Assembly (NCBI GenBank): GCA_038245905.1
Contig: JBBRRY010000013.1
Coordinates: 7,876-71,875 of the forward strand
Direction of reading: 5' to 3'
Length of the DNA stretch: 64,000 nucleotides
DNA from: Thermoanaerobaculia bacterium
GTDB taxonomy: Bacteria; Acidobacteriota; Thermoanaerobaculia; UBA5066
The notes below the pieces were generated by a model. The model worked only from the letters and a program-made list of their open reading frames with translations. It had not been told where the DNA came from and did not search any database. The position numbers were made by a program, and so were the translations under genes. Shown piece by piece: positions 23,515 through 38,261 of this stretch; within the stretch, counting starts at the first letter, position 1, and every line of letters begins with the position of its first letter.

Positions 23515-24273
23515 ATGAGTAGACGCGGCGGGGGGCGGAAAGTCTTCTTCTTCGCTTTCCTCTTTCTCCTCGCCTCCGCCGCCGCCGCGGGGCCCGTGGT
23601 GCCGCCCGCGCCGACGCGGTTCGTGACGGACAAGGCAGGCGTGATCGCGCCGGACGTCGCCGCCGGGCTCGAGACCCGCCTTTTCGACTTCGAGAAGGAA
23701 ACGTCGAACCAGTTCCTCGTCTACACGGAGACCGCCGTTCCGGAGGGAACGACGCTCGAGGAATACACCGTCGCGTGCGCGCAGGCCTGGAAGGCCGGGC
23801 AGACGCAGCGGAAGAACGGGATGATCCTGTTCGTCTTTCCCGGATCGCGGAAGGCGCGCCTCGAAGTGGGATACGGGCTCGAAGGCGCGATGCCCGATGC
23901 CCTCGCGCGTCGCGTCCTCGACGAGCAGGTGCTCCCGCGGTTCCGGACGGGCGACTACTCCGGGGGGATTTCCTCGGGCGTCTCGTCTGCGATCGCGGCC
24001 ACGAAGGGCGAGTACAAGGGGACCGGACAGGCGCGCGGGCAGCGCCGCGAACGGACCCTTCCCGGTCCGCTTCTTCTCTCTCTCCTCTTTCTCTTTTTCT
24101 TCGTGATCGTTCCGGCGCTCCGGGGCCGTCGCCGCGGGTATTCCTACATCGGTGGCGGCGGCTGGGGCTCGGGGGGATTCGGCGGGTTCGGCGGCGGAGG
24201 AGGAGGAGGCGGCGGCGGCTTCTCGGGCGGAGGCGGCTCCTTCGGCGGCGGCGGCGCGAGCGGGGACTGGTGA
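23515..24273 (+). CDS. TPM-domain protein (YgcG-like) with a TM segment and a Gly-rich C-terminal tail
   Basis: Signal peptide, then a TPM domain (…FVTDKAGVI…LVYTE…GMILFVFPGSRKARLEVGYGLEG…), then a TM helix, then a GGGGWGSGGFGGFGGGGGGGGGGFSGGGG tail. Confidence 0.8.
   Translation: MSRRGGGRKVFFFAFLFLLASAAAAGPVVPPAPTRFVTDKAGVIAPDVAAGLETRLFDFEKETSNQFLVYTETAVPEGTTLEEYTVACAQAWKAGQTQRKNGMILFVFPGSRKARLEVGYGLEGAMPDALARRVLDEQVLPRFRTGDYSGGISSGVSSAIAATKGEYKGTGQARGQRRERTLPGPLLLSLLFLFFFVIVPALRGRRRGYSYIGGGGWGSGGFGGFGGGGGGGGGGFSGGGGSFGGGGASGDW
24150..24270 (+). repeat. GGC-rich low-complexity coding repeat (Gly-rich tail of the TPM protein)
   Basis: (ggc/gga)n runs are visible in the sequence, encoding about 35 consecutive Gly/Phe/Ser residues. 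Confidence 0.8.
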
Positions 24274-27289: not shown

Positions 27290-27607
27290 GTGGCCGCGCT
27301 GCTCGACAAGAAGGCCGAAAAGCTGGTCGTCCTGAACCTGCAGGGCCTCACGACGATCTCCGACTACTTCGTCCTCGCCACGGCGGGGAGTGACCGGCAA
27401 GCCCAGGCTCTTTCCGACGCCGTCGAGCTGGCCCTCAAGGCCGTGGGCCGCAGGCCGCTCTCGATCGAGGGCTACTCCTCAGCGACCTGGATCCTCCTCG
27501 ACTACGGCGACGTGGTGTTCCACGTCTTCCACGACGAGGCGCGCCGCTTCTACGGCCTCGAGAGGCTGTGGGGAGACGCTCCGGACGCCACGGCGGCGTT
27601 CCGCTAA
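27290..27607 (+). CDS. rsfS: ribosomal silencing factor RsfS (Iojap)
   Basis: …LNLQGLTTISDYFVLATAGSDRQAQALSDAV… and …WILLDYGDVVFHVFHDEARRFYGLERLW match RsfS end to end. GTG start chosen at 27290; it could start a few codons further upstream. Confidence 0.75.
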   Translation: MAALLDKKAEKLVVLNLQGLTTISDYFVLATAGSDRQAQALSDAVELALKAVGRRPLSIEGYSSATWILLDYGDVVFHVFHDEARRFYGLERLWGDAPDATAAFR

Positions 27608-27615
27608 GGTATCGC

Positions 27616-28554
27616 GTGGCGGGACGTGCCGCGTCGTCCGCCCTCTTCGTGACGCGCCACCGCGGCCTCAGGGAGCAGCTCAGGCGGCTCCAACGCGCGG
27701 TCGACTCGGCCAACACGGTTCTCCTCCTCGGAGCGCCTGGCACGGGGAAGGACCGGCTCGCGCGCCTCCTGCACGAGCGCTCGACGCGCGCCGGAGAGCC
27801 TTTCGTGCGCGTGGATCTCGCGGCCGTATCGGACGATCTCTTCGAGAGCGAGCTCTTCGGGCACGAGCGCGGCGCGTTCACGGGCGCCGTCTCGGGCAAG
27901 CCCGGCCTCCTCGAAGGCGCCGGCGAGGGCACGCTCTACCTCGACCGGGTCGACGCGCTGTCGCTCCGGGCCCAGGGAAAGCTCCTTCGCGTCGTCGAGG
28001 AGCGTCTCGTGCGTCGCGTCGGAGGCACCCGTCTCCTGCCGCTCAAGGCGCGCCTCGTGGCCTCGGCCGGTCCCGACCTGCCGCGTCAGGCGCGCGCGGG
28101 GACGTTCCGGGAGGATCTCTACTACCGGCTCGCGGTCGTCACGGTGAGCCTGCCTCCGCTGGTCGAGCGCCGCGAGGACCTTCTTTCCGCGGCGCGTTCT
28201 CTCGCGAAAGCCGGCGGCGGCCCGGCCGTGTTCACGGCGGCCGCACGGCGCGTGATCCTGGGGCACGCCTGGCGCGGCAACTTCCGCGAACTCGAGAACG
28301 TCGTTCGAAGAGCCGCGAACGAAGCGCTCGCGGACAGGGCTGGCGCGATCGACGCCGCGCACCTGAAGCTCGCCGGTCCGTCGGACCCCGAGGCGCTTCT
28401 TCACGCGGCCGCGCACGCGCGCTGGTCGCTCCGGCAGCTCACGGGCGCCTACATCTCCCTCATCCTGGACGAGGCGGGTGGAAACGTGGCGGAGGCGGCG
28501 CGCCGCCTCGGGGTGGCCCGCAAGACGCTCTACGCGCGACGGACGCGCTCGTGA
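27616..28554 (+). CDS. sigma54-interacting AAA+ activator lacking any N-terminal sensor/receiver domain (PspF-like architecture) with a Fis-type HTH
   Basis: Walker A LLGAPGTGKDRLA, GAFTGA loop (ERGAFTGAV), Walker B/R-finger region, and a C-terminal HTH …GNVAEAARRLGVARKTLYARR. The GTG start at 27616 leaves only ~30 aa ahead of the AAA core. Confidence 0.75.
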   Translation: MAGRAASSALFVTRHRGLREQLRRLQRAVDSANTVLLLGAPGTGKDRLARLLHERSTRAGEPFVRVDLAAVSDDLFESELFGHERGAFTGAVSGKPGLLEGAGEGTLYLDRVDALSLRAQGKLLRVVEERLVRRVGGTRLLPLKARLVASAGPDLPRQARAGTFREDLYYRLAVVTVSLPPLVERREDLLSAARSLAKAGGGPAVFTAAARRVILGHAWRGNFRELENVVRRAANEALADRAGAIDAAHLKLAGPSDPEALLHAAAHARWSLRQLTGAYISLILDEAGGNVAEAARRLGVARKTLYARRTRS

Positions 28555-29457: not shown

Positions 29458-30903
29458 GTGACACGTCCCGATCCCTTCGCGGCTCTCGCGCCGCTCCTCG
29501 CGTCGGCGCGGACGACGCCTCTCCACCCGATCCTCTTCCTGTCCGGAGACGACGACTGGATCGTGGTCGAGGGCGCGCGCCGCGTGACGGCGGCATTCCA
29601 GGAAGCCTTCCCGGAGGGAGAGGTCTCGACGTACGAGGCGACGGGCGAAGGCGTGAAGGAAGCCGTGGCGGACGCCGCCACCGTCGCGCTCTTCTCGACG
29701 AACCGGCTCGTGGTTCTCGAAGCGACGGAGCTGTTCCGCGGCAAGGGCCTCACGGCGGAAGAGGTCGATGCGCTCCTCGACGAAGCCGACGAGGCGCGGG
29801 ACGACGCGCGCGTCCGCGCGCGCCTCGCGCGTAAGGCGCACGCGCTCGCCGGGGCGGCCGGCGTCGCCGTCGGCGACGATCCCGAAGACGCCGCGCGCCG
29901 AATCGCCGGCCGGGTGAAGAGGGCGGATCGGGCCGGGGAGCTTGCCGCGCTTCTCGCCCTCCTCCCCGCGCCGGAGGAAGGCGCCGAGACGGCGCTCGAC
30001 CGGCTCCTGGACTTCGCCGTGCGCGCGGGCGCGTCCGACAACGTCCTTCTCGTTCATGCGATCACGCCCGACGCGCAGCACCGCGCGACACAGGGCCTGA
30101 GACGCGCGGCGCGTACCGCGGACCTGTCGGTGCCCGACGAACCCGCGCGGCGCGCGCGCCTCGCCGCGCTCGGTCTCGAACGGGCCATCGATCGCAAGGC
30201 GCTCGTCGAGTCCGAGGTCTTCGAGCTTCTCTCGGGCCGGGGCCGGCTCGCCGCGCGGCCCTTTCTCTCGGACCTCGACCGCCTCATCGACTCCGCTGCC
30301 GGGCCGCGCGTGACCGCCGAAGAGGCCGCGCGACAGGTCGCCGACGAGAGCCGCGAATACGGATCGGACTTCGTCGAGGCCGTCGCGAAGCGCGACCTTG
30401 GAGAGGCGCTGCGCCTCCTCGCGAAGCTCCTCTCGGGAGCCAGCTTCACGGCGTTCCGCCCGTGGGGCGGCAAGGAGGACACGCCCTCGGCGAAGAAGGG
30501 GCCGCGCGGCGAGGCCGCGTTTTTCCCGCTCCTCGGCCTCCTCGCGGCCGAGATCAGGAGGATGCTCGCGCTGCGCGCGGCCCTGGACGAACGGGCGACG
30601 CCTTCCTCTTCGTCTCAAGCGCCGCGCCGCGCGGATTACCGCGGATTCGTGGATCGCATTCTCCCGGTTCTGAAGGCCGTCCGCCCCGGTTTCCCGCCGC
30701 TGCCTCTCGACGCCCACCCGTTCGTTCTCCACAAGGCCTACCTCGCGGCCCTCGGCTGGACGGCGGACGACCTCAAGGGCGCGCTCATGGGGCTGGAGGC
30801 GATCGACCGGGGCGTGAAGAGCGGGGCGGGCACGGGCCCCGAGCTTCTCGAGACCTGGCTTCTCTCCCAGCTCCACTCTCTCGGGCGGACGGCGACAGGC
30901 TAA
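29458..30903 (+). CDS. holA: probable DNA polymerase III delta subunit (HolA-like), extended form
   Basis: N-terminus …PILFLSGDDDWIVVEGARRV…ATVALFSTNRLVVLEATELF… matches the delta N-terminal domain pattern. It sits in the holA-nadD-rsfS-rlmH neighbourhood conserved in proteobacteria. The length of 481 aa is longer than canonical. Confidence 0.5.
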   Translation: MTRPDPFAALAPLLASARTTPLHPILFLSGDDDWIVVEGARRVTAAFQEAFPEGEVSTYEATGEGVKEAVADAATVALFSTNRLVVLEATELFRGKGLTAEEVDALLDEADEARDDARVRARLARKAHALAGAAGVAVGDDPEDAARRIAGRVKRADRAGELAALLALLPAPEEGAETALDRLLDFAVRAGASDNVLLVHAITPDAQHRATQGLRRAARTADLSVPDEPARRARLAALGLERAIDRKALVESEVFELLSGRGRLAARPFLSDLDRLIDSAAGPRVTAEEAARQVADESREYGSDFVEAVAKRDLGEALRLLAKLLSGASFTAFRPWGGKEDTPSAKKGPRGEAAFFPLLGLLAAEIRRMLALRAALDERATPSSSSQAPRRADYRGFVDRILPVLKAVRPGFPPLPLDAHPFVLHKAYLAALGWTADDLKGALMGLEAIDRGVKSGAGTGPELLETWLLSQLHSLGRTATG

Positions 30904-30913
30904 GATCTCCTTC

Positions 30914-33900
30914 TTGGTGAGCGAGCCGACCGGCGACCCGCGCGTGCGCTTCGACCGCCGCGACCGCATTTTCATCGTCCTCTGCCTGCTCACGATCGTG
31001 GGCGGCGCCCTCGTCTTCCGGGCCGGGTTTTCGAGAGCCTTTCCGGAGGCGTCGATCGACTTCAAGGTCACGCGCGAGGAAGCCATTCGCCGTGGCGCCG
31101 AGGCGCTTCGCGCGCGCGGCTTCTCGCTCGACGGCGCCCGCGCTCTCGCGATCTTCGACGGCGACGACGAGGCGAAGGTCTATCTCGAGCGGACTCTCGG
31201 CCTCGAGAAGGCGAACCCGGTCTTCAGGGCGACGGTTCCCGTCTGGCGCTGGTCGGTGCGATGGGTCCGCCCGCTCGAGAAGCTCGAATACCGGGCGGCG
31301 GTCTCTCCGGACGGACGGCTCCTCGCCATCCGCAGGATCCTGCCGGAAAAGGAGGCCGCACCCGATCCGGGCGAGGCAACGGCGCGCTCCCTGGCGGAGG
31401 CGGAGATCCGGGAGCTGCGCGGGATCGACCCGTCGACGCTTCGATTCATCGAGACGACGGTCGAGAAGCGCCCCGCGCGCGTCGACCGCACATTCATCTG
31501 GGAGTCGAACACGATCCGATTCGGGGATGCCGCTCTTCGCTACCTCGTCGAGATGCAGGGGGACCGCGTCGGGCGCTCGTCGCTCCACTTCGAGGTCCCG
31601 GAGAAATGGCGTCGCGACTACGAGACGCTCCGCTCGAAGAACCTCGCGGCGGGCACGGTCGCCACGCTGGGCCTTCTCCTCACGGCGCTCGCCGTCCTCG
31701 TCGTCTTCCTCCAGCGCGTCCGCCGCAAGGACGTGAAGTGGAAGTGGGCGCTCGCGTTCGGGGGGACGGGAGCGCTTCTGCAGCTCCTCGCGTCGCTCAA
31801 CGAGATGCCGATCCGTCTGTTCGACTACGAGACCTCGGACGGCTGGGCGGGGTTCGTCGCGAAGTCGGTGGCGGGCGACGTGGGCGCCGCCGTGAGCCTC
31901 GGCGTGGTGCTGCTCCTTCTCGTCGCGGCGGGCGAGCCGCTCTACCGGGAGCGCTATCCGGACAAGCCGGCGCTCGGCCGCATCCTGTCTCTCCGCGGAA
32001 TCGCTTCGAAGCGCTTCTTCCGAGGGCTCCTCCTCGGATACGCGATGACGGCATTCTTCTTCGCGTACCAGATCATCTTCTACATCGTGGCCGCGCACTT
32101 CGACGCGTGGGCTCCCGCCGACGTGCCGTACTCGAACCTGCTCGGCACCTCGTTCCCGTGGCTCGGCGTCCTCCTGATGGGGTTCGTGCCCGCGACGACC
32201 GAGGAGTTCTCGTCGCGGATGTTCTCGATCTCCTTCGCGGAGCGGTTCGTGCCGCGATGGGCCGCGGTCGTGGTGCCGGCGCTCATCTGGGGCTTCGCGC
32301 ACAGCACGTATCCGAACCAGCCTTTCTACATCCGAGGCGTCGAGGTGGGGTTCGCGGGAATCCTCATCGGCTTCGTGATGCTGAAGGCGGACATCTTCCC
32401 GCTCCTCGTGTGGCACTTCACGGTCGACGCCGTCTACACGGCGCTCCTTCTCCTGCGCTCGTCGGATCCGTACTTCGTCGTGTCCGGCGCCGCTGCGTCT
32501 CTCGTGCTCCTGCTTCCGCTCGCCGTGTCGCTCGCACTCTATTTCCGCCGCGGCGGATTTACGCCCGACGGGGAATTCACGAACGCGACGGTCGGTACCG
32601 CACTGGCGCCTCCGCACGTCGAGGAGGCCGTCCCTTCGGGTTGCGCGCCGCCGAGCGCGCTGAGCCCCGTGCGCGTGTGTTCCGCTCTCGCGCTCGCACT
32701 CCTTGCGTTCCTCGCGGCGCGATTCGTTCTGCCGCGGACAGGGCCATGGGAAGACGTGAGGGTCGCGGTCGACCGGAATGGAGCGAAGGCCGCCGCGGAC
32801 GCCTGGCTGAGGACGGCGGGCGACGACCCCGCGGGCTACCTGTCGGTGGCGACGACGGCCACTGCGCTCCCGGCCCTCGAGGACCCCTCCGACACGGGCG
32901 CGGGCCTCGTCCCGTATGGCGAATCCGATCTCGCGGAGCGTTGGCTGCTCGAACGGGGCGGCATGCCGCTCTTCACGAAGTGGGCGACGGCAATCTTTCC
33001 GGGGCCGGTCTGGAACGTCCGCTACGTGCGCGCGCTCGATGAGCACGGCGCGAACGTCGCGGTGGACGGGCGGACGGGCCGCGTCGTCGGCTTCCGCCGC
33101 TCCTTCCCGGAGGCCGAGGCCGGCGCGAGCCCCGACGAGCCGGCGGCTCGCGCGAAGGCGTCGACGGTCCTTTCCTCGTTCGGCTTCGGCCCGCTCACCT
33201 GGGATGTCGTGTCGTCGAAGAGCGAGGCGCGCAAGGCTCGAAAAGACACGCTCGTCGTCTCCGAGTCGCGTCTCGAGCACGCCGGCGAAGCGGTGAGACG
33301 CGCCGTCACCGGGTTCGCGGGCGACGTTCCGTCGCTCTTCGCCACGGCCCTGAAGCTGCCGGAGGACTGGGTGCGCTCCCGGGACAAGTCGACGGGCGCG
33401 ACGTATGCCGCCATCGCGTGGAAGATCCTCGCGTGGGGAACCCTCGTGGGGCTTCTCGTCGTCGAGCTCATTCGTCTCGCGCGCGCCGGGTCGATTCCGT
33501 GGCGGAACTCTCTCAGGCTCGCGGCGCTTCTCGCGCTGCCGGCGATTCTCTCCCGCTTCCTCTCGCTCCCTCTCATCCTCGCGCGCTACGACTCGCAGTT
33601 CTCGATGCCGGTCTTCGCGGTCGTCGCGGGAGTCGGTCTGCTCGTGGGCGTGCTCGTCTCCTACGGCATCGCCCTCCTCGCGGTGGCCCTCGTCCTCGCC
33701 GTAAAGTCCGACGCGGCCGGCGCGTTCCGGCGCGGGGGCGCGGACGGCCCCTGGGCCCTCGCCGCGGGCGCGGGCGCGACCGTTCTCGTCCTCGGCGTGC
33801 GCGCACTCGCGCATGGTGTCTCGGCGGCGTTCCCTCTCGAGGCAGGCGTCCCGGGCTTCTCGTTTCCGCAGGGAGTCGAGACGATCCTGCCCGCTGCCAT

Positions 33901-34327
33901 CGTGCTCGACGGCATCGTCCTTCGCGTCCTTCTCTTCGGGGGCGCCGCCGCCTTCCTCGCGCTTCTCCTCCGCGACGTCTTGAAGAAGCCGGCCCTTCGC
34001 GTGGGTCTTCTTGCGCTCGCCGTCGGCGTCTTCGCGCCGTTCGGCGCTCGGACGGCCGGCGAGCTCGCGGTGCCTGTCTTCGCGGGCGCGCTGACCGCGC
34101 TCGCCGCGGTCGCGGCGATCACCGTGTTCCTGCGCGACGACCCGCGCGCATACGTTTTCGCGGCGGCGCTCCTCGCGGCGGCCGGAGCAGGCGCCGACCT
34201 CGTGTCGAGTGGCGTGACGCCGTGGGTGTGGAACGGCGTCATCGTGCTCGCGGTCGTGGCAGTCTTCGTCGCCCGCTTCGGTTTCGACCGGCCCCGGCCG
34301 GAAGCGCCCGCCCTGCCGGTGACCTAG
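30914..34327 (+). CDS. giant polytopic membrane protein: CPBP (CAAX/Abi) intramembrane protease core plus two PepSY-like soluble modules and a C-terminal TM bundle
   Basis: CPBP motifs EEFSSRMF, FAHST and HFTVDAVY lie on consecutive TM helices. Soluble segments at about aa 40-230 and 600-800 share a PepSY-like end motif (VWRWSVRWVRPLEKLEYRAAVSPDGRLLAIRRILPE versus VWNVRYVRALDEHGANVAVDGRTGRVVGFRRSFPE). There are more than 20 hydrophobic helices overall. The opposite-strand 1190-aa ORF is R-rich junk. Confidence 0.65.
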   Translation: MVSEPTGDPRVRFDRRDRIFIVLCLLTIVGGALVFRAGFSRAFPEASIDFKVTREEAIRRGAEALRARGFSLDGARALAIFDGDDEAKVYLERTLGLEKANPVFRATVPVWRWSVRWVRPLEKLEYRAAVSPDGRLLAIRRILPEKEAAPDPGEATARSLAEAEIRELRGIDPSTLRFIETTVEKRPARVDRTFIWESNTIRFGDAALRYLVEMQGDRVGRSSLHFEVPEKWRRDYETLRSKNLAAGTVATLGLLLTALAVLVVFLQRVRRKDVKWKWALAFGGTGALLQLLASLNEMPIRLFDYETSDGWAGFVAKSVAGDVGAAVSLGVVLLLLVAAGEPLYRERYPDKPALGRILSLRGIASKRFFRGLLLGYAMTAFFFAYQIIFYIVAAHFDAWAPADVPYSNLLGTSFPWLGVLLMGFVPATTEEFSSRMFSISFAERFVPRWAAVVVPALIWGFAHSTYPNQPFYIRGVEVGFAGILIGFVMLKADIFPLLVWHFTVDAVYTALLLLRSSDPYFVVSGAAASLVLLLPLAVSLALYFRRGGFTPDGEFTNATVGTALAPPHVEEAVPSGCAPPSALSPVRVCSALALALLAFLAARFVLPRTGPWEDVRVAVDRNGAKAAADAWLRTAGDDPAGYLSVATTATALPALEDPSDTGAGLVPYGESDLAERWLLERGGMPLFTKWATAIFPGPVWNVRYVRALDEHGANVAVDGRTGRVVGFRRSFPEAEAGASPDEPAARAKASTVLSSFGFGPLTWDVVSSKSEARKARKDTLVVSESRLEHAGEAVRRAVTGFAGDVPSLFATALKLPEDWVRSRDKSTGATYAAIAWKILAWGTLVGLLVVELIRLARAGSIPWRNSLRLAALLALPAILSRFLSLPLILARYDSQFSMPVFAVVAGVGLLVGVLVSYGIALLAVALVLAVKSDAAGAFRRGGADGPWALAAGAGATVLVLGVRALAHGVSAAFPLEAGVPGFSFPQGVETILPAAIVLDGIVLRVLLFGGAAAFLALLLRDVLKKPALRVGLLALAVGVFAPFGARTAGELAVPVFAGALTALAAVAAITVFLRDDPRAYVFAAALLAAAGAGADLVSSGVTPWVWNGVIVLAVVAVFVARFGFDRPRPEAPALPVT

Positions 34328-35190
34328 CCCCGCACTCCGGCCTTCCGCCACTCCCACTCGGCGAGGCGTTCGCGTGCGCCGAGGCCGATCGCGCGGTGCA
34401 GGTCGACGAGGAGGCGCGACGCTTCGGGGTCCTTGAAGGGCGGCGGCCCGAGGCGTGTGAGCACGGCCTCCGGATGATCCGGGGGCGCATAGGACCCGCG
34501 GAGCGCGGCGACCGGCTCGCCCGGACGGTAGAAGAGCTCGGGTCTCTCGAGGACGTGCCGGGGGAGCGACTCCGGCGGGTCAGTCGTGTCGCGGGGCGCG
34601 GCCGGGTCGGGTGCGTCGGGCACGGACCTGCGTTCGGGACGGGTGCGCGCGCGCTGCAGGCCCGCGAGGAGCTCTTCTCGGGGAACGCCACGGAGCAGGA
34701 ACACGAGGAACGGGTCGTCCTGGAGGCGGTCGCCGAGCAGGACGGCGAGGGCGCCGGCATGCGCACACGGCCCTGGAACCTCCGCGCACGAGCACCGGAA
34801 GACGACATCGTCAGCGTCGACCGGAAGGAGCGTGCGCCCGGTGCCCTGGAAGGCGCCCTCCACGTCTTCGGGCAGGCGGCCCGCGAGGAGATCGGCGGCG
34901 AATCGCGCCCGCGCGGCCATCGCCTTCAGGACACGGCGCTTGGCGATGGTCGCGAGCGAGTGCAGGGAAAGCGACGTCTCTTCGACGTGGCCGTCCGTTG
35001 CCTTGACGTCCGCGCGCGCGCCGGCGCGCCCGATCTCGAGCGACGTGACGGCGCCCGAGAGGGCGATCGCGCGCCCGTCCTGGAGCGCCTCCTCCCAGCC
35101 GAGCGCGGCGAGGCGCGCGAGGAAGCGGAAGGCCCACCCGCTCTCGGGCGGCTTCGCGCGGGGGAGAAGTGTCTTTCGGCGGCGCGGCAT
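34324..35190 (-). CDS. SWIM zinc-finger domain protein
   Basis: CxCx(n)CxH SWIM signature (…VVFRCSCAEVPGPCAHAGALA…). ATG at 35190, giving 288 aa; the upstream ORF extension is in-frame junk overlapping the SNF2 gene. Its start overlaps the SNF2 stop (TGATG). Confidence 0.7.
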   Translation of the reverse strand: MPRRRKTLLPRAKPPESGWAFRFLARLAALGWEEALQDGRAIALSGAVTSLEIGRAGARADVKATDGHVEETSLSLHSLATIAKRRVLKAMAARARFAADLLAGRLPEDVEGAFQGTGRTLLPVDADDVVFRCSCAEVPGPCAHAGALAVLLGDRLQDDPFLVFLLRGVPREELLAGLQRARTRPERRSVPDAPDPAAPRDTTDPPESLPRHVLERPELFYRPGEPVAALRGSYAPPDHPEAVLTRLGPPPFKDPEASRLLVDLHRAIGLGARERLAEWEWRKAGVRG

Positions 35191-38100
35191 CAATGGCCTC
35201 CGTCCGTTTCGACGGCGTTCGTGTCGAGCGCGACGAGCTCCGTGAGCTGCTCGTCCGACAGGGTCGCGATCCACTGCTCCCCGGCACCCACGATCGAGCG
35301 CGCGAGCGCCTTCTTCTCCTCGATCATCCGGTCGATGCGCTCCTCGAGCGTGCCGCGGCAGACGAACTTGTGGACCTGGACGTGCTGCGTCTGGCCGATC
35401 CGGAACGCGCGGTCGGTCGCCTGCTCCTCGACCGCGGGATTCCACCAGCGGTCCACGTGGAACACGTGCGAGGCGCGCGTCAGGTTGAGGCCCGTGCCTC
35501 CCGCGCGCAGCGATAGAACGAAGAATGGGGGCGGATCCTCGTCCTCCTGGAAGCGCCGAACCATTTCCGTCCGCGTGTGGCGGGGGACCGCGCCGTGGAG
35601 AAACAGAACCTCGCAGCCGAAGCGCTCTTTCAATTCGGCGACGAGGAGGTGGCCCATCTCGGCGAACTGCGTGAAGAGCAGGGCCGGGCTCCTCTCGGCG
35701 AGCGTCTCCTCGCACATCTCGACGAGGCGGGCGACCTTCGCCGAGCGGCCGTCGCGCCGCCCGTCCCCCAGGAACAGCGCGGGGTGGTCGCAGATCTGCT
35801 TGAGCCTGAGCAGGAGGAGGAGAATCTTCGCCTTCCGGCTCCGCCGATTCGCCCGCCCGATCCCCGAGAGCAGGGAGCGCGTCGTCGCCTTGTAGAGTGC
35901 CGCCTGTTCGCGCGTCAGGCCGACGAGCTCCTTCGTCTCGATCTTCTCGGGAAGGTCGGGAACGACGCCGGGATCGGTCTTGGCGCGGCGGAGCAGGAAC
36001 GGGCCCGTGACGTGGCGCAGGCGGGCGGCCGCGGACGGGTCGCTGTGCCGCTCGATCGGAAGCGAAAAATTGCGCCGGAAGGCTTCGTCCGTGCCGAGGA
36101 GCCCGGGGTTCAGGAAATCGAAGATGGACTTCAGCTCGGAGAGGCGGTTCTCGACGGGCGTGCCCGTGAGGGCGGCGCGGCGGTGGGCATGCAGAGAGCG
36201 CGCGGCACGCGACTGCGCGGCCGCCGGGTTCTTGATGTTCTGCGCCTCGTCGAGCGCGAGGTATTCCCAGGTGACGCCCGACAGAAGCGCGCGGTCGCGG
36301 TGCACGAGGGCATACGTCGTGACGAGGAGGTCCACCTCTTCGAGGAGTTCCTGGAACGCCGCCCCGCTCGCGCGGCCGGCTCCGTGGTGTACGACGACAC
36401 GGAGCTGCGGCGCGAAGCGTTCGGCTTCACGGACCCAGTTCTCGGCGACGGACGTGGGGCAGACGAGGAGGGACGGCCCGATGCGCTCCCCCGCATCGCG
36501 TGCCGTGAGCAGCGTGGCGAGGAACTGGATCGTCTTGCCGAGTCCCATGTCGTCCGCGAGACACGCGCCGAGGCCCCGCGAGAGCAGGAAGCGCAACCAC
36601 CCCACACCTCGCATCTGATATGGGCGTAGCGTGCCCGTCAGGCCGTGCGGCGCCGCGTATCCGGCGATCTCGCGCCGCGCGACTTCCGGGTCGAGCAGGC
36701 GGCCGACCCATCCCTCGCCCCCCACGCCGTCGATGAGCACGTCGTCGCGCTCGCTGTCGAGCCCGCCCGCGAGCCGAAGCAGCTCGCCGAGCGTCGTGCG
36801 GCCTCCGGGGCGGCGGTCCAGGAGGCGCCGCGCCCTCTCGAGGTTCTCCTTGTCGAGAAGGACCCACTCTCCCTGGATTTCGACGAGCGGAATCTGGCGC
36901 GCGGCCAGGTCCTCGAATTCGTGAGGAGTCAGGAGCGCGTCGCCCACGGCCACGCGCCAGTCGAAGTCGACGAGCGCGTCGAGGCCGAAGCGCACGACGG
37001 GCGCGTCCGCTTCGCCCGGTCCGGGCGCGCGCCCCACGAGCTTGAGGGCGACGCGTGCGAGGCTTCCGCCACCGGGCAGGCGGACGGCGATGCCGGCCTC
37101 TCCAAGGCGCGGCGCCTCGTCGGAGAGAAAGCGCCAGGCCTCGTCGGGGGACAGGATGACGCCCGAGGGATGCCGCTCTTCGAGGCTCCGGGCGACCGGC
37201 CTGGAAAGCGCCGCGGCGGTCCCGAGGCGCGCGAGGAGCACGTCCTGCGGATTCGTGAACAGGCGCCCGCGGCGCCGGATCGAACCCTCGGTCAGGGCCC
37301 AGATCTCCTCGGCTTCGAGCGAGACTTCCGGGCTCTCTCCGGATTCGAGGACGTACGCGAGTGCGAACGGGCCGCCGGCCTCGGCCGGAGGCACGACGCG
37401 GATCCCGAGCCTGAGCAGACTCTCGGGCAGCGGATCGAGGAGCGGAAGACTCCACTCCTTGAGACGCGCGAGGACGCCGGGCTCGAGCACCGAGGTGGCG
37501 GGGGCCGCGAGCGCGGCGACGACCTCGGCCTCGGGACCGTCGCCCGCGCGGCGGCGCTCTTCTGGAAGGACATCCCTGAGGACGTCGCGCGCCGCCGCAT
37601 CCACGGCGTCGTCGAGGAAGCTCAACAGCAGTCCGCGTGCGGCGGGGAGCGCGCCGTCGGGCCCGGGGCGCGTGCCCGAAGGCAGGACCGCGCGCGATAC
37701 GGGCGGCATCGCTTCGGCGAGGCGGCGCAGCCGCTCCCTCTCGTGGGCGTCGTCGAGAACCGGGCGCCAGCGCGGGTGGGCGCCGTCCGTGCCGGGCGCG
37801 ACACGCCGACGGAGCAGGAGGTCGAACACCCAGCGCGCGACTTCCGCCCAGTAGTCGAGGTCGTCGCCGGCAGACACGGAGAGGGGCCGCGCGCGGAGGG
37901 CGGCAGGGAGCGCGAGAAGCGTTTCGAGCGCGTGCGCCATCGGGAGGACGAGGGCGGGGACCTCGTACGCCCGGAGGACGGCCGTGAAGGGCGCCGTATA
38001 GTCCGCCGGCTCCCGGAGGGCCGGTGCGGACGGAACGGGACGCCCGTGCACAGCGGGGGTGGCGAGCGTGAGCGACGTGCGCTCGGCGTGCACGGAGACG

Positions 38101-38261
38101 AAGGACGTGAGGCCTTCGGTCGCCAGCGCCTCGAGGATCTCGCTTTGCTCGAGGGCGCGGGGGTGCCGGTCGCGCCCTTCGCGCGGGGTGAAGAGTCCCT
38201 CGCCCCAAAGGGCGAAACCGGATGGACGAGGGACGCCATGCAGGATGATCAAGCCGTCCAT
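35190..38261 (-). CDS. SNF2-family helicase/ATPase with an ~480-aa N-terminal domain of unknown function
   Basis: SNF2_N motifs …LRPYQMRGVGWL…ADDMGLGKTIQ…, DEAQNIKN and LTGTPVENRLSEL, followed by a helicase-C domain (…LFTQFAEMGHLL…, SLRAGGTGLNLT, …DRWWNPAVEEQATDRAFRIGQ…). Confidence 0.85.
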   Translation of the reverse strand: MDGLIILHGVPRPSGFALWGEGLFTPREGRDRHPRALEQSEILEALATEGLTSFVSVHAERTSLTLATPAVHGRPVPSAPALREPADYTAPFTAVLRAYEVPALVLPMAHALETLLALPAALRARPLSVSAGDDLDYWAEVARWVFDLLLRRRVAPGTDGAHPRWRPVLDDAHERERLRRLAEAMPPVSRAVLPSGTRPGPDGALPAARGLLLSFLDDAVDAAARDVLRDVLPEERRRAGDGPEAEVVAALAAPATSVLEPGVLARLKEWSLPLLDPLPESLLRLGIRVVPPAEAGGPFALAYVLESGESPEVSLEAEEIWALTEGSIRRRGRLFTNPQDVLLARLGTAAALSRPVARSLEERHPSGVILSPDEAWRFLSDEAPRLGEAGIAVRLPGGGSLARVALKLVGRAPGPGEADAPVVRFGLDALVDFDWRVAVGDALLTPHEFEDLAARQIPLVEIQGEWVLLDKENLERARRLLDRRPGGRTTLGELLRLAGGLDSERDDVLIDGVGGEGWVGRLLDPEVARREIAGYAAPHGLTGTLRPYQMRGVGWLRFLLSRGLGACLADDMGLGKTIQFLATLLTARDAGERIGPSLLVCPTSVAENWVREAERFAPQLRVVVHHGAGRASGAAFQELLEEVDLLVTTYALVHRDRALLSGVTWEYLALDEAQNIKNPAAAQSRAARSLHAHRRAALTGTPVENRLSELKSIFDFLNPGLLGTDEAFRRNFSLPIERHSDPSAAARLRHVTGPFLLRRAKTDPGVVPDLPEKIETKELVGLTREQAALYKATTRSLLSGIGRANRRSRKAKILLLLLRLKQICDHPALFLGDGRRDGRSAKVARLVEMCEETLAERSPALLFTQFAEMGHLLVAELKERFGCEVLFLHGAVPRHTRTEMVRRFQEDEDPPPFFVLSLRAGGTGLNLTRASHVFHVDRWWNPAVEEQATDRAFRIGQTQHVQVHKFVCRGTLEERIDRMIEEKKALARSIVGAGEQWIATLSDEQLTELVALDTNAVETDGGH

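Follow-up and report, generated by a model that had tools for sequence, protein, structure and literature searches.

A 64,000-nucleotide stretch of the genome of a Thermoanaerobaculia bacterium (contig JBBRRY010000013.1 of assembly GCA_038245905.1; the whole stretch is referred to here as the window) carries on its plus strand, at 30914..34327, the gene of a CPBP-family membrane protein that consists of two homologous halves. Each half is a copy of one module, i.e. an anchor transmembrane (TM) helix followed by a PepSY-like soluble region and a bundle of TM helices, and this module has been duplicated. The reading we favour, and consider reasonably probable, is that a single chain joins an active CPBP/Rce1-type protease copy to a diverged, dead paralogue, with tandem PepSY domains lying in the periplasm. 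The gene had been singled out by a first-pass annotation made from the sequence alone, several claims of which are taken up below.

Two homologous halves in one polypeptide

When the N-terminal half is compared with the C-terminal half by BLASTP, the two share 32% identity over 172 residues (E 3e-14), and the two stretches that the first-pass annotation had quoted as PepSY-type motifs (aa 110-145 and aa 699-733) both fall inside this self-match. Profile comparison with hhalign extends the relationship to the entire module. Between soluble region 1 (aa 41-245) and soluble region 2 (aa 608-832), 195 columns align at E 2e-33 when sub-alignments built from 57 orthologues are used, while the two bundles are collinear over 246 columns (probability 99.3%, E 2e-20) in an alignment of 137 diverse relatives with 23-42% identity to the window protein, which is also the basis of the residue conservation given below. 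The tandem duplication of a PepSY-TM module that the first-pass annotation had proposed is thus borne out, including by the significant alignment of its two PepSY-like motifs in a formal repeat search. The parts of the two modules are as follows, all on the plus strand:

30914..34327, plus strand: whole gene of the two-module CPBP-family membrane protein (open reading frame and translation)
30968..31033 (aa 19-40), plus strand: TM1, a signal-anchor helix in N-in orientation that follows an Arg-rich cytoplasmic N-terminus
31049..31351 (aa 46-146), plus strand: PepSY-like subdomain A1, one helix and four strands, with a conserved two-helix insert, DDEAKVYLERTLGL
31352..31600 (aa 147-229), plus strand: PepSY-like subdomain B1, one helix and four strands
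31601..32551 (aa 230-546), plus strand: helix bundle 1, nine helices, the predicted active CPBP/Rce1-like domain
32153..32434 (aa 414-507), plus strand: match to the Rce1-like family PF02517 (Pfam)
32201..32218 (aa 430-435), plus strand: EExxxR motif (EEFSSR)
32294..32305 (aa 461-464), plus strand: FxxxH-type motif (FAHS)
32414..32428 (aa 501-505), plus strand: HxxxD/N motif (HFTVD)
32552..32665 (aa 547-584), plus strand: poorly conserved cytoplasmic linker between the modules
32666..32731 (aa 585-606), plus strand: TM11, which corresponds to TM1 and anchors module 2
32747..33115 (aa 612-734), plus strand: PepSY-like subdomain A2, homologous to A1
33116..33373 (aa 735-820), plus strand: PepSY-like subdomain B2, homologous to B1
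33395..34282 (aa 828-1123), plus strand: helix bundle 2, nine helices collinear with bundle 1

Each soluble region is therefore a pair of subdomains, and the two quoted motifs close the first member of each pair, A1 and A2, respectively. The first-pass annotation was right in recognising the motifs, but it had placed them at the ends of the soluble segments, where they do not lie. Across the modules the correspondence is strong (A1 with A2 at E 1e-35, B1 with B2 at E 1e-34; hhalign), whereas A and B within one soluble region are only weakly related (89-94% probability). This difference points to a nested history, in which an old A/B tandem would have arisen first and the duplication of the whole module would have followed later.

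Predicted structure of the two modules

The AlphaFold2 (AF2) model of the protein has a mean predicted local distance difference test (pLDDT) score of 90.8 and a predicted template modelling (pTM) score of 0.87, which, in a chain as long as 1137 residues, implies a confidently predicted, fixed arrangement of the two modules. In both halves the secondary-structure elements follow one another in the same order. The anchor helices (aa 15-42 and 585-604) lead into two units of a helix and four strands each (aa 54-142 and 154-227 in the first half, 621-730 and 742-814 in the second), the first unit of each pair having a helical insert, and these are followed by the nine-helix bundles (aa 230-546 and 828-1123), which are equal in helix number, order and lengths. 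The catalytic motifs lie inside helices H415-442, H448-462 and H495-514 of the model.

The soluble regions show an alpha plus four-stranded antiparallel beta fold akin to that of solved PepSY domains; the top structural match of the PepSY-like pairs is the YpeB tandem, with YpmB and the propeptides of M4 proteases following at lower Z. Against the PepSY-family models of Pfam, the window protein itself yields no match, whether searched whole (E<=1) or as the isolated domain (E<=0.1). Among 22 orthologous domains, seven match DUF4901 (best E 1.5e-9) and three match PepSY (best E 6.6e-6). The DUF4901 match (the repeated domain of YcdB/YcdC) covers the end of A1 and most of B1, and the PepSY match in the orthologue P0062, which scores 28.4 bits against a cutoff of 24, covers the A2 region. 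Searches of PDB chains with the whole-family profile, the soluble-domain profile or the CPBP core alone returned nothing relevant.

The fold of bundle 1 resembles that of solved CPBP structures. With module 2 alone, SpdC and Rce1 were not detectably matched and APH-1B appeared only at noise level; it is through its relationship to bundle 1, and not through any direct resemblance to a solved CPBP structure, that bundle 2 is presumed to descend from a CPBP domain. One might suppose that the duplication took in no more than the anchor helix, the PepSY pair and bundle helices 1-3, which by themselves align between the bundles at E 1.6e-20, and that the last six helices of module 2 form a helical domain of unrelated origin instead of a degenerate CPBP core. 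We find such a partial duplication distinctly unlikely: it sits badly with the equal helix number, order and lengths of the two AF2 bundles and with the collinearity of the full-bundle alignment. Moreover, the match of the C-terminal parts, weak as it is, lies exactly in register, the HxxxD helix falling on its positional counterpart, whereas out-of-register control comparisons of the bundles reach about 1% probability (hhalign).

One intact catalytic site and one lost

The sole Pfam family matched by the window protein is the Rce1-like/CPBP family PF02517 (aa 414-507, E 2e-8), at 34.7 bits against a cutoff of 22.4 and with profile positions 3-93 of 93 covered; according to precomputed Pfam annotation, it is present in 55 of the 57 aligned orthologues. 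The motifs EEFSSR, FAHS and HFTVD, which the first-pass annotation had quoted as the catalytic signature within the frame 30914-34327, are all present in the translation.

Across the 137 relatives, the residues of bundle 1 that make up this signature hardly vary. E431 and R435 are kept in every one of them, E430 in 135, H463 (in WGFAHS, where the short helix 448-462 ends) in 135 and H501 in 134; position 505 is occupied by D in 83 and by N in 52. The aligned positions of module 2 are L1007 (for E430), F1008 (E431), A1012 (R435), G1044 (H463), A1084 (H501) and A1088 (position 505), and these counterparts are variable and mostly apolar in the same relatives, the G1044 column also containing D, S and E. 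The statement of the first-pass annotation that only one copy carries the protease motifs consequently stands. More generally, 22 positions of bundle 1 are conserved at 90% or above, compared with 2 in bundle 2.

Loss of the site has not been followed by decay. Among twelve closer orthologues, the pairwise ratio of nonsynonymous to synonymous substitution rates (dN/dS) is 0.08-0.16 for bundle 1, as against 0.16-0.25 for bundle 2 and 0.14-0.30 for the soluble region of module 2. These values are to be read with the qualification that dS probably comes out too low, the genome being GC-rich and codon-biased, and that more distant pairs are near saturation. Given these ratios, the conserved length and the occurrence of both soluble regions in the 150 listed representatives of the family (see below), the catalytically dead module 2 is maintained under purifying selection. 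A further feature common to the modules is found in the periplasmic loop between bundle helices 2 and 3, where module 1 has N296...Y305-x-T307 and module 2 has the corresponding N in 96, Y892 in 129 and T in 118 of the 137 relatives. Recurrence of this motif points to a common structural or functional role at the periplasmic face.

The same data bear on whether the protein is a protease at all. It could instead serve in vivo as a CPBP-fold scaffold or regulator, as SpdC does with SagB or WalK, or catalyse acyl transfer, as proposed for the CPBP-like LnsB. We regard this as unlikely, as relatives of only 23-42% identity hardly deviate from the complete set of EExxxR, FxxxH and HxxxD/N, which is what a working site would lead one to expect, and as module 2, having lost these very residues, shows relaxed constraint within the same protein. 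Judged from its sequence, bundle 1 would be a catalytically competent glutamic intramembrane endopeptidase of the CPBP/Rce1 type.

Membrane topology and the question of self-inhibition

The AF2 helices and the hydropathy segments together give 20 TM helices, which agrees approximately with the more than 20 of the first-pass annotation. In a model with the N-terminus inside, the short cytoplasmic loops contain 26 lysine or arginine residues in 141 positions and the short periplasmic loops 4 in 95. This charge bias assigns the linker between the modules to the cytoplasm and the PepSY pairs of both modules to the periplasm. E430, E431, R435, H501 and D505 are separated by 6-16 residues from the points where their helices end on the cytoplasmic side, i.e. 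they sit between the middle of the membrane and its inner leaflet, and the EExxxR and HxxxD motifs are inside membrane helices, as the first-pass annotation had supposed. Rce1 (4CAD) has the same helix orientation, with a cavity that opens to the cytoplasm.

From the classical role of PepSY domains as inhibitory propeptides, the first-pass annotation had derived a self-regulating protease, in which the PepSY domains would block or regulate the CPBP active site of their own chain in the manner of M4 propeptides. This model finds no support, and the topology makes it unlikely. Since the PepSY pairs are periplasmic while the catalytic residues sit toward the cytoplasmic side, a propeptide-like plug is unlikely, and no cleavage site or propeptide-like feature is evident in the window protein. 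In addition, the best structural match, the YpeB tandem, is no protease propeptide, PepSY domains are also found in proteins that are not proteases, e.g. FoxB, and the dead module retains its own PepSY pair, which would be pointless as the inhibitor of an active site that is absent. Taken as a whole, we give self-inhibition a slim chance.

A widespread family in fused form

A word-index search returned 1521 relatives, of which the best 120, about 1130 aa long with few exceptions, come from Thermoanaerobaculia, Holophagales and other Acidobacteriota. They are labelled at source as ‘CPBP family intramembrane glutamic endopeptidase/metalloprotease’, ‘type II CAAX endopeptidase family protein’ or ‘membrane protease YdiL’. 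The soluble-domain profile reached further, to 2309 representatives at 50% identity (847 at E<=1e-30), and all 150 of those listed have two matched stretches, most being 1060-1230 aa in length. With one genome counted per species, the gene occurs in at least 516 GTDB species genomes, and its carriers include Bryobacterales/Solibacteraceae, Zixibacteria, Ignavibacteria and Latescibacterota.

The first-pass annotation had suggested a survey for orthologues split into two genes. None that is truly split was seen among the 150 listed of the 2309 representatives, and the one apparent case lies on a broken contig. This candidate, P0102 (748 aa), was rejected as a split orthologue because holA and the SNF2 gene are broken on the same contig, and it is probably a frameshift artefact. 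At the locus L084 (contig_56974 of ERZ25039492), holA, the CPBP gene and the SNF2 gene each look split or shortened relative to their orthologues in the window, which suggests frameshift errors of the kind typical of uncorrected long-read assemblies. Seemingly split orthologues on contigs of this sort are not to be relied upon. As far as the sequences tell, the fused two-module form appears to be the rule in what looks like a single-copy-like family that is common in Acidobacteria.

The gene and its neighbourhood

The reading frame 30914..34327 is uninterrupted and comprises 1137 codons when counted from TTG 30914 (open reading frame listing and translation), with TAG at 34325-34327 as its stop. 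The second codon is GTG (30917), and because a 100%-identical database protein is 1136 aa long, the true start is probably this GTG. Upstream lies a holA-like gene that ends 10 nt before TTG 30914 and 13 nt before GTG 30917; owing to this short distance the two genes are probably co-transcribed. A scan for promoters and terminators revealed nothing above expectation. At the other end, the stop codon overlaps that of the convergent open reading frame (ORF) that encodes a SWIM motif: both genes finish on one CTAG (window 34324-34327), the minus-strand TAG occupying 34324-34326, which leaves a terminator without intergenic space.

The neighbours named in the first-pass annotation, a holA-like gene directly upstream and a convergent SNF2/SWIM pair downstream, were found as described. 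The product of the holA-like gene (29458-30903, plus strand) is 481 aa, long for a delta subunit, and barely passes the Pfam model DNA_pol3_delta (22.2 bits against a cutoff of 21). Before it come dksA, rlmH and a sigma-54 activator gene (27568-28554, plus strand), whose 328-aa product has AAA+ and HTH_8 domains only, with no receiver or sensor domain; many Thermoanaerobaculia loci keep this gene ahead of rlmH-dksA-holA. On the minus strand, in the region 34324-38261, the SWIM-motif ORF (CSCAEVPGPCAH) has no Pfam match at E<=0.001; it lies directly downstream of, and probably overlaps, the gene of a 1023-aa DUF3670+SNF2+Helicase_C protein. When the SNF2 helicase core is compared with the PADLOC models DpdE and ZorD, the match is limited to the generic SNF2 region. 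Elsewhere in the window, the ORF listing contains a frame of 252 aa at 23515-24273 (plus strand), with hydrophobic segments at the N-terminus and around residue 190 and a long tail rich in glycine (GGGGGGGGGFSGGGGSFGGGGASGDW).

The order obgE, sigma-54 activator, rlmH, dksA, holA and SWIM/SNF2 is kept in Thermoanaerobaculia, and its SWIM/SNF2 side also in Holophagales, while in Bryobacterales, Zixibacteria, Ignavibacteria and Latescibacterota this synteny is gone. Because the arrangement follows phylogeny and disappears in other lineages, the context is inherited synteny in a housekeeping region and not evidence of a functional operon partner. Nor did PADLOC find a defence-system match for the protein, despite the historical name ‘Abi’.

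Other neighbourhoods are more particular. In two distant family members, L001 and L003, two ABC2_membrane_6 permease genes and one for an ABC ATPase are located close to the CPBP gene (L001 16631-19344, L003 11443-14138), in L003 directly convergent with it; in most of the other loci examined, this trio is absent within 6 kb. In L001, a locus from one Thermoanaerobaculia genome, the CPBP gene furthermore adjoins, in the region L001 1-7478, the gene of a surface protein of more than 2700 aa with CLIPPER, SdrD_B and Peptidase_C25 matches and that of an S8 peptidase with PKD domains.

This last neighbourhood is relevant to a sorting function of the kind described for the myxosortase MrtX, whereby the protease would cut the C-terminal membrane anchor off a set of surface proteins, the exported cargo being recognised by the PepSY pairs. 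Such a role is documented for a CPBP protease (PMC11980579), and the family studied here, which is single-copy-like, is found widely among diderm phyla that have many surface proteins, its gene in L001 adjoining those of the very large surface protein and the S8 protease. On the other hand, no cognate C-terminal signal was found: the large L001 protein has no C-terminal anchor and no hydrophobic or Arg-rich tail, its neighbourhood is not conserved elsewhere, and no NCBIfam model of the sortase type matches. Sorting is the least probable of the explanations weighed here.

What the protein may do

Taken together, the data are best accounted for by an ancient duplication of a whole module that would have built a conserved inner-membrane protein, the single chain forming a fixed pseudo-heterodimer in which the two modules may cooperate. 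The active module would cleave a membrane-embedded or membrane-tethered substrate. By analogy with SpdC-SagB, SpdC-WalK (PMC5854430) and MrtX (PMC11980579), the dead module and the PepSY pairs could serve as a built-in scaffold and/or as a platform for substrate recognition or capture or for sensing, rather than as a propeptide-style plug.

Three observations pull the other way. Several bacterial CPBP-fold proteins, e.g. SpdC, work without proteolysis (PMC5854430). The C-terminal half of bundle 2, taken by itself, aligns with the CPBP core at a probability of only 70% (E 4e-5, 41 columns). Finally, no neighbour recurs across phyla in the loci examined, save for a short-chain dehydrogenase that may do so. 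For the reasons given in the preceding sections, we nevertheless assign lower weight to a non-proteolytic function, to sorting and to a non-CPBP origin of the last six helices than to an active protease copy joined to a dead paralogue.

A more specific proposal would make the protein an obligate pair of active and dead CPBP copies in a single chain and a new kind of signal-regulated intramembrane protease: the PepSY tandems would sense an envelope cue or bind an exported ligand, and the dead module would relay this through the membrane so as to gate the active site of module 1, which in turn would cleave a membrane-anchored regulator or an envelope-biogenesis factor that is part of the core of Acidobacteriota biology. 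In this detailed form we rate the proposal as speculative and rather improbable.

Bacterial CPBP proteins are abundant and mostly without an assigned function, and those that have been studied are either proteases (MrtX, MroQ) or non-catalytic partners (SpdC). The enzyme family and the PepSY fold are already known, and databases already name the protein a CPBP protease, albeit under merely generic labels such as ‘CPBP family’ or ‘YdiL’ proteases. What stands out is the duplication of a whole module in which one copy is dead and PepSY tandems are tethered to the membrane, an architecture that has become fixed throughout a large family of wide distribution. A combination of CPBP/CAAX with PepSY or DUF4901 was not found described in the searchable literature, and no Pfam or NCBIfam model captures the architecture of the whole protein.

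Both states, active and dead, are here found in one chain, and the dead copy has been retained for a very long time, in at least 516 species from several phyla. The family therefore lends itself naturally to the question of what an active protease gains from a pseudoprotease paralogue, and it suggests a testable role for membrane-tethered PepSY tandems beyond those in protease propeptides and spore germination proteins. The confident model (pLDDT 91, pTM 0.87) eases the design of mutational tests.

Comparison with known systems

Typical CPBP/Rce1-like proteins (PF02517; MmRce1, 4CAD) have about 200-300 aa and 6-8 helices, compared with 1136 aa and 20 helices in the window protein. Here, the CPBP core comes after an anchor helix, some 190 periplasmic residues and extra helices, and the whole module comes a second time, in the same chain, as a dead copy. 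That large polytopic CPBP fusions exist as such is illustrated by the NCBIfam model NF041647 (ABC transporter permease subunit/CPBP intramembrane protease, 636 aa). The window protein is not a member of that family: it scores 33.8 bits against a cutoff of 435, and only the CPBP end aligns (E 1.6e-8).

For the soluble regions, the relevant systems are the tandem PepSY proteins, i.e. the C-terminal domain of YpeB (5BOI) and YpmB (2GU3), together with the families PF03413 and DUF4901 (PF16244). The present pairs differ from these in the conserved two-helix insert of subdomain A. They also differ in their setting, as the PepSY-like domains described here are anchored between the TM helices of a polytopic protease and not part of a secreted or single-pass protein.

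With the myxosortase MrtX, an Rce1-like CPBP protein with its motifs in TM4 and TM7, the window protein has in common that it is a CPBP protease of diderm bacteria with the same catalytic motifs. For MrtX, the class of substrates has been shown experimentally; PepSY domains or a second module, both present here, are not mentioned in the passages from which these statements on MrtX are drawn (PMC11980579).

The dead copy, in turn, invites comparison with the non-catalytic CPBP folds of SpdC/LyrA from S. aureus, as seen in 6U0O, which by its title is the SagB-SpdC complex, and of eukaryotic APH-1. SpdC acts without proteolysis, together with WalK (PMC5854430). In contrast to SpdC and APH-1, the dead copy of the family described here shares its polypeptide with an active one.

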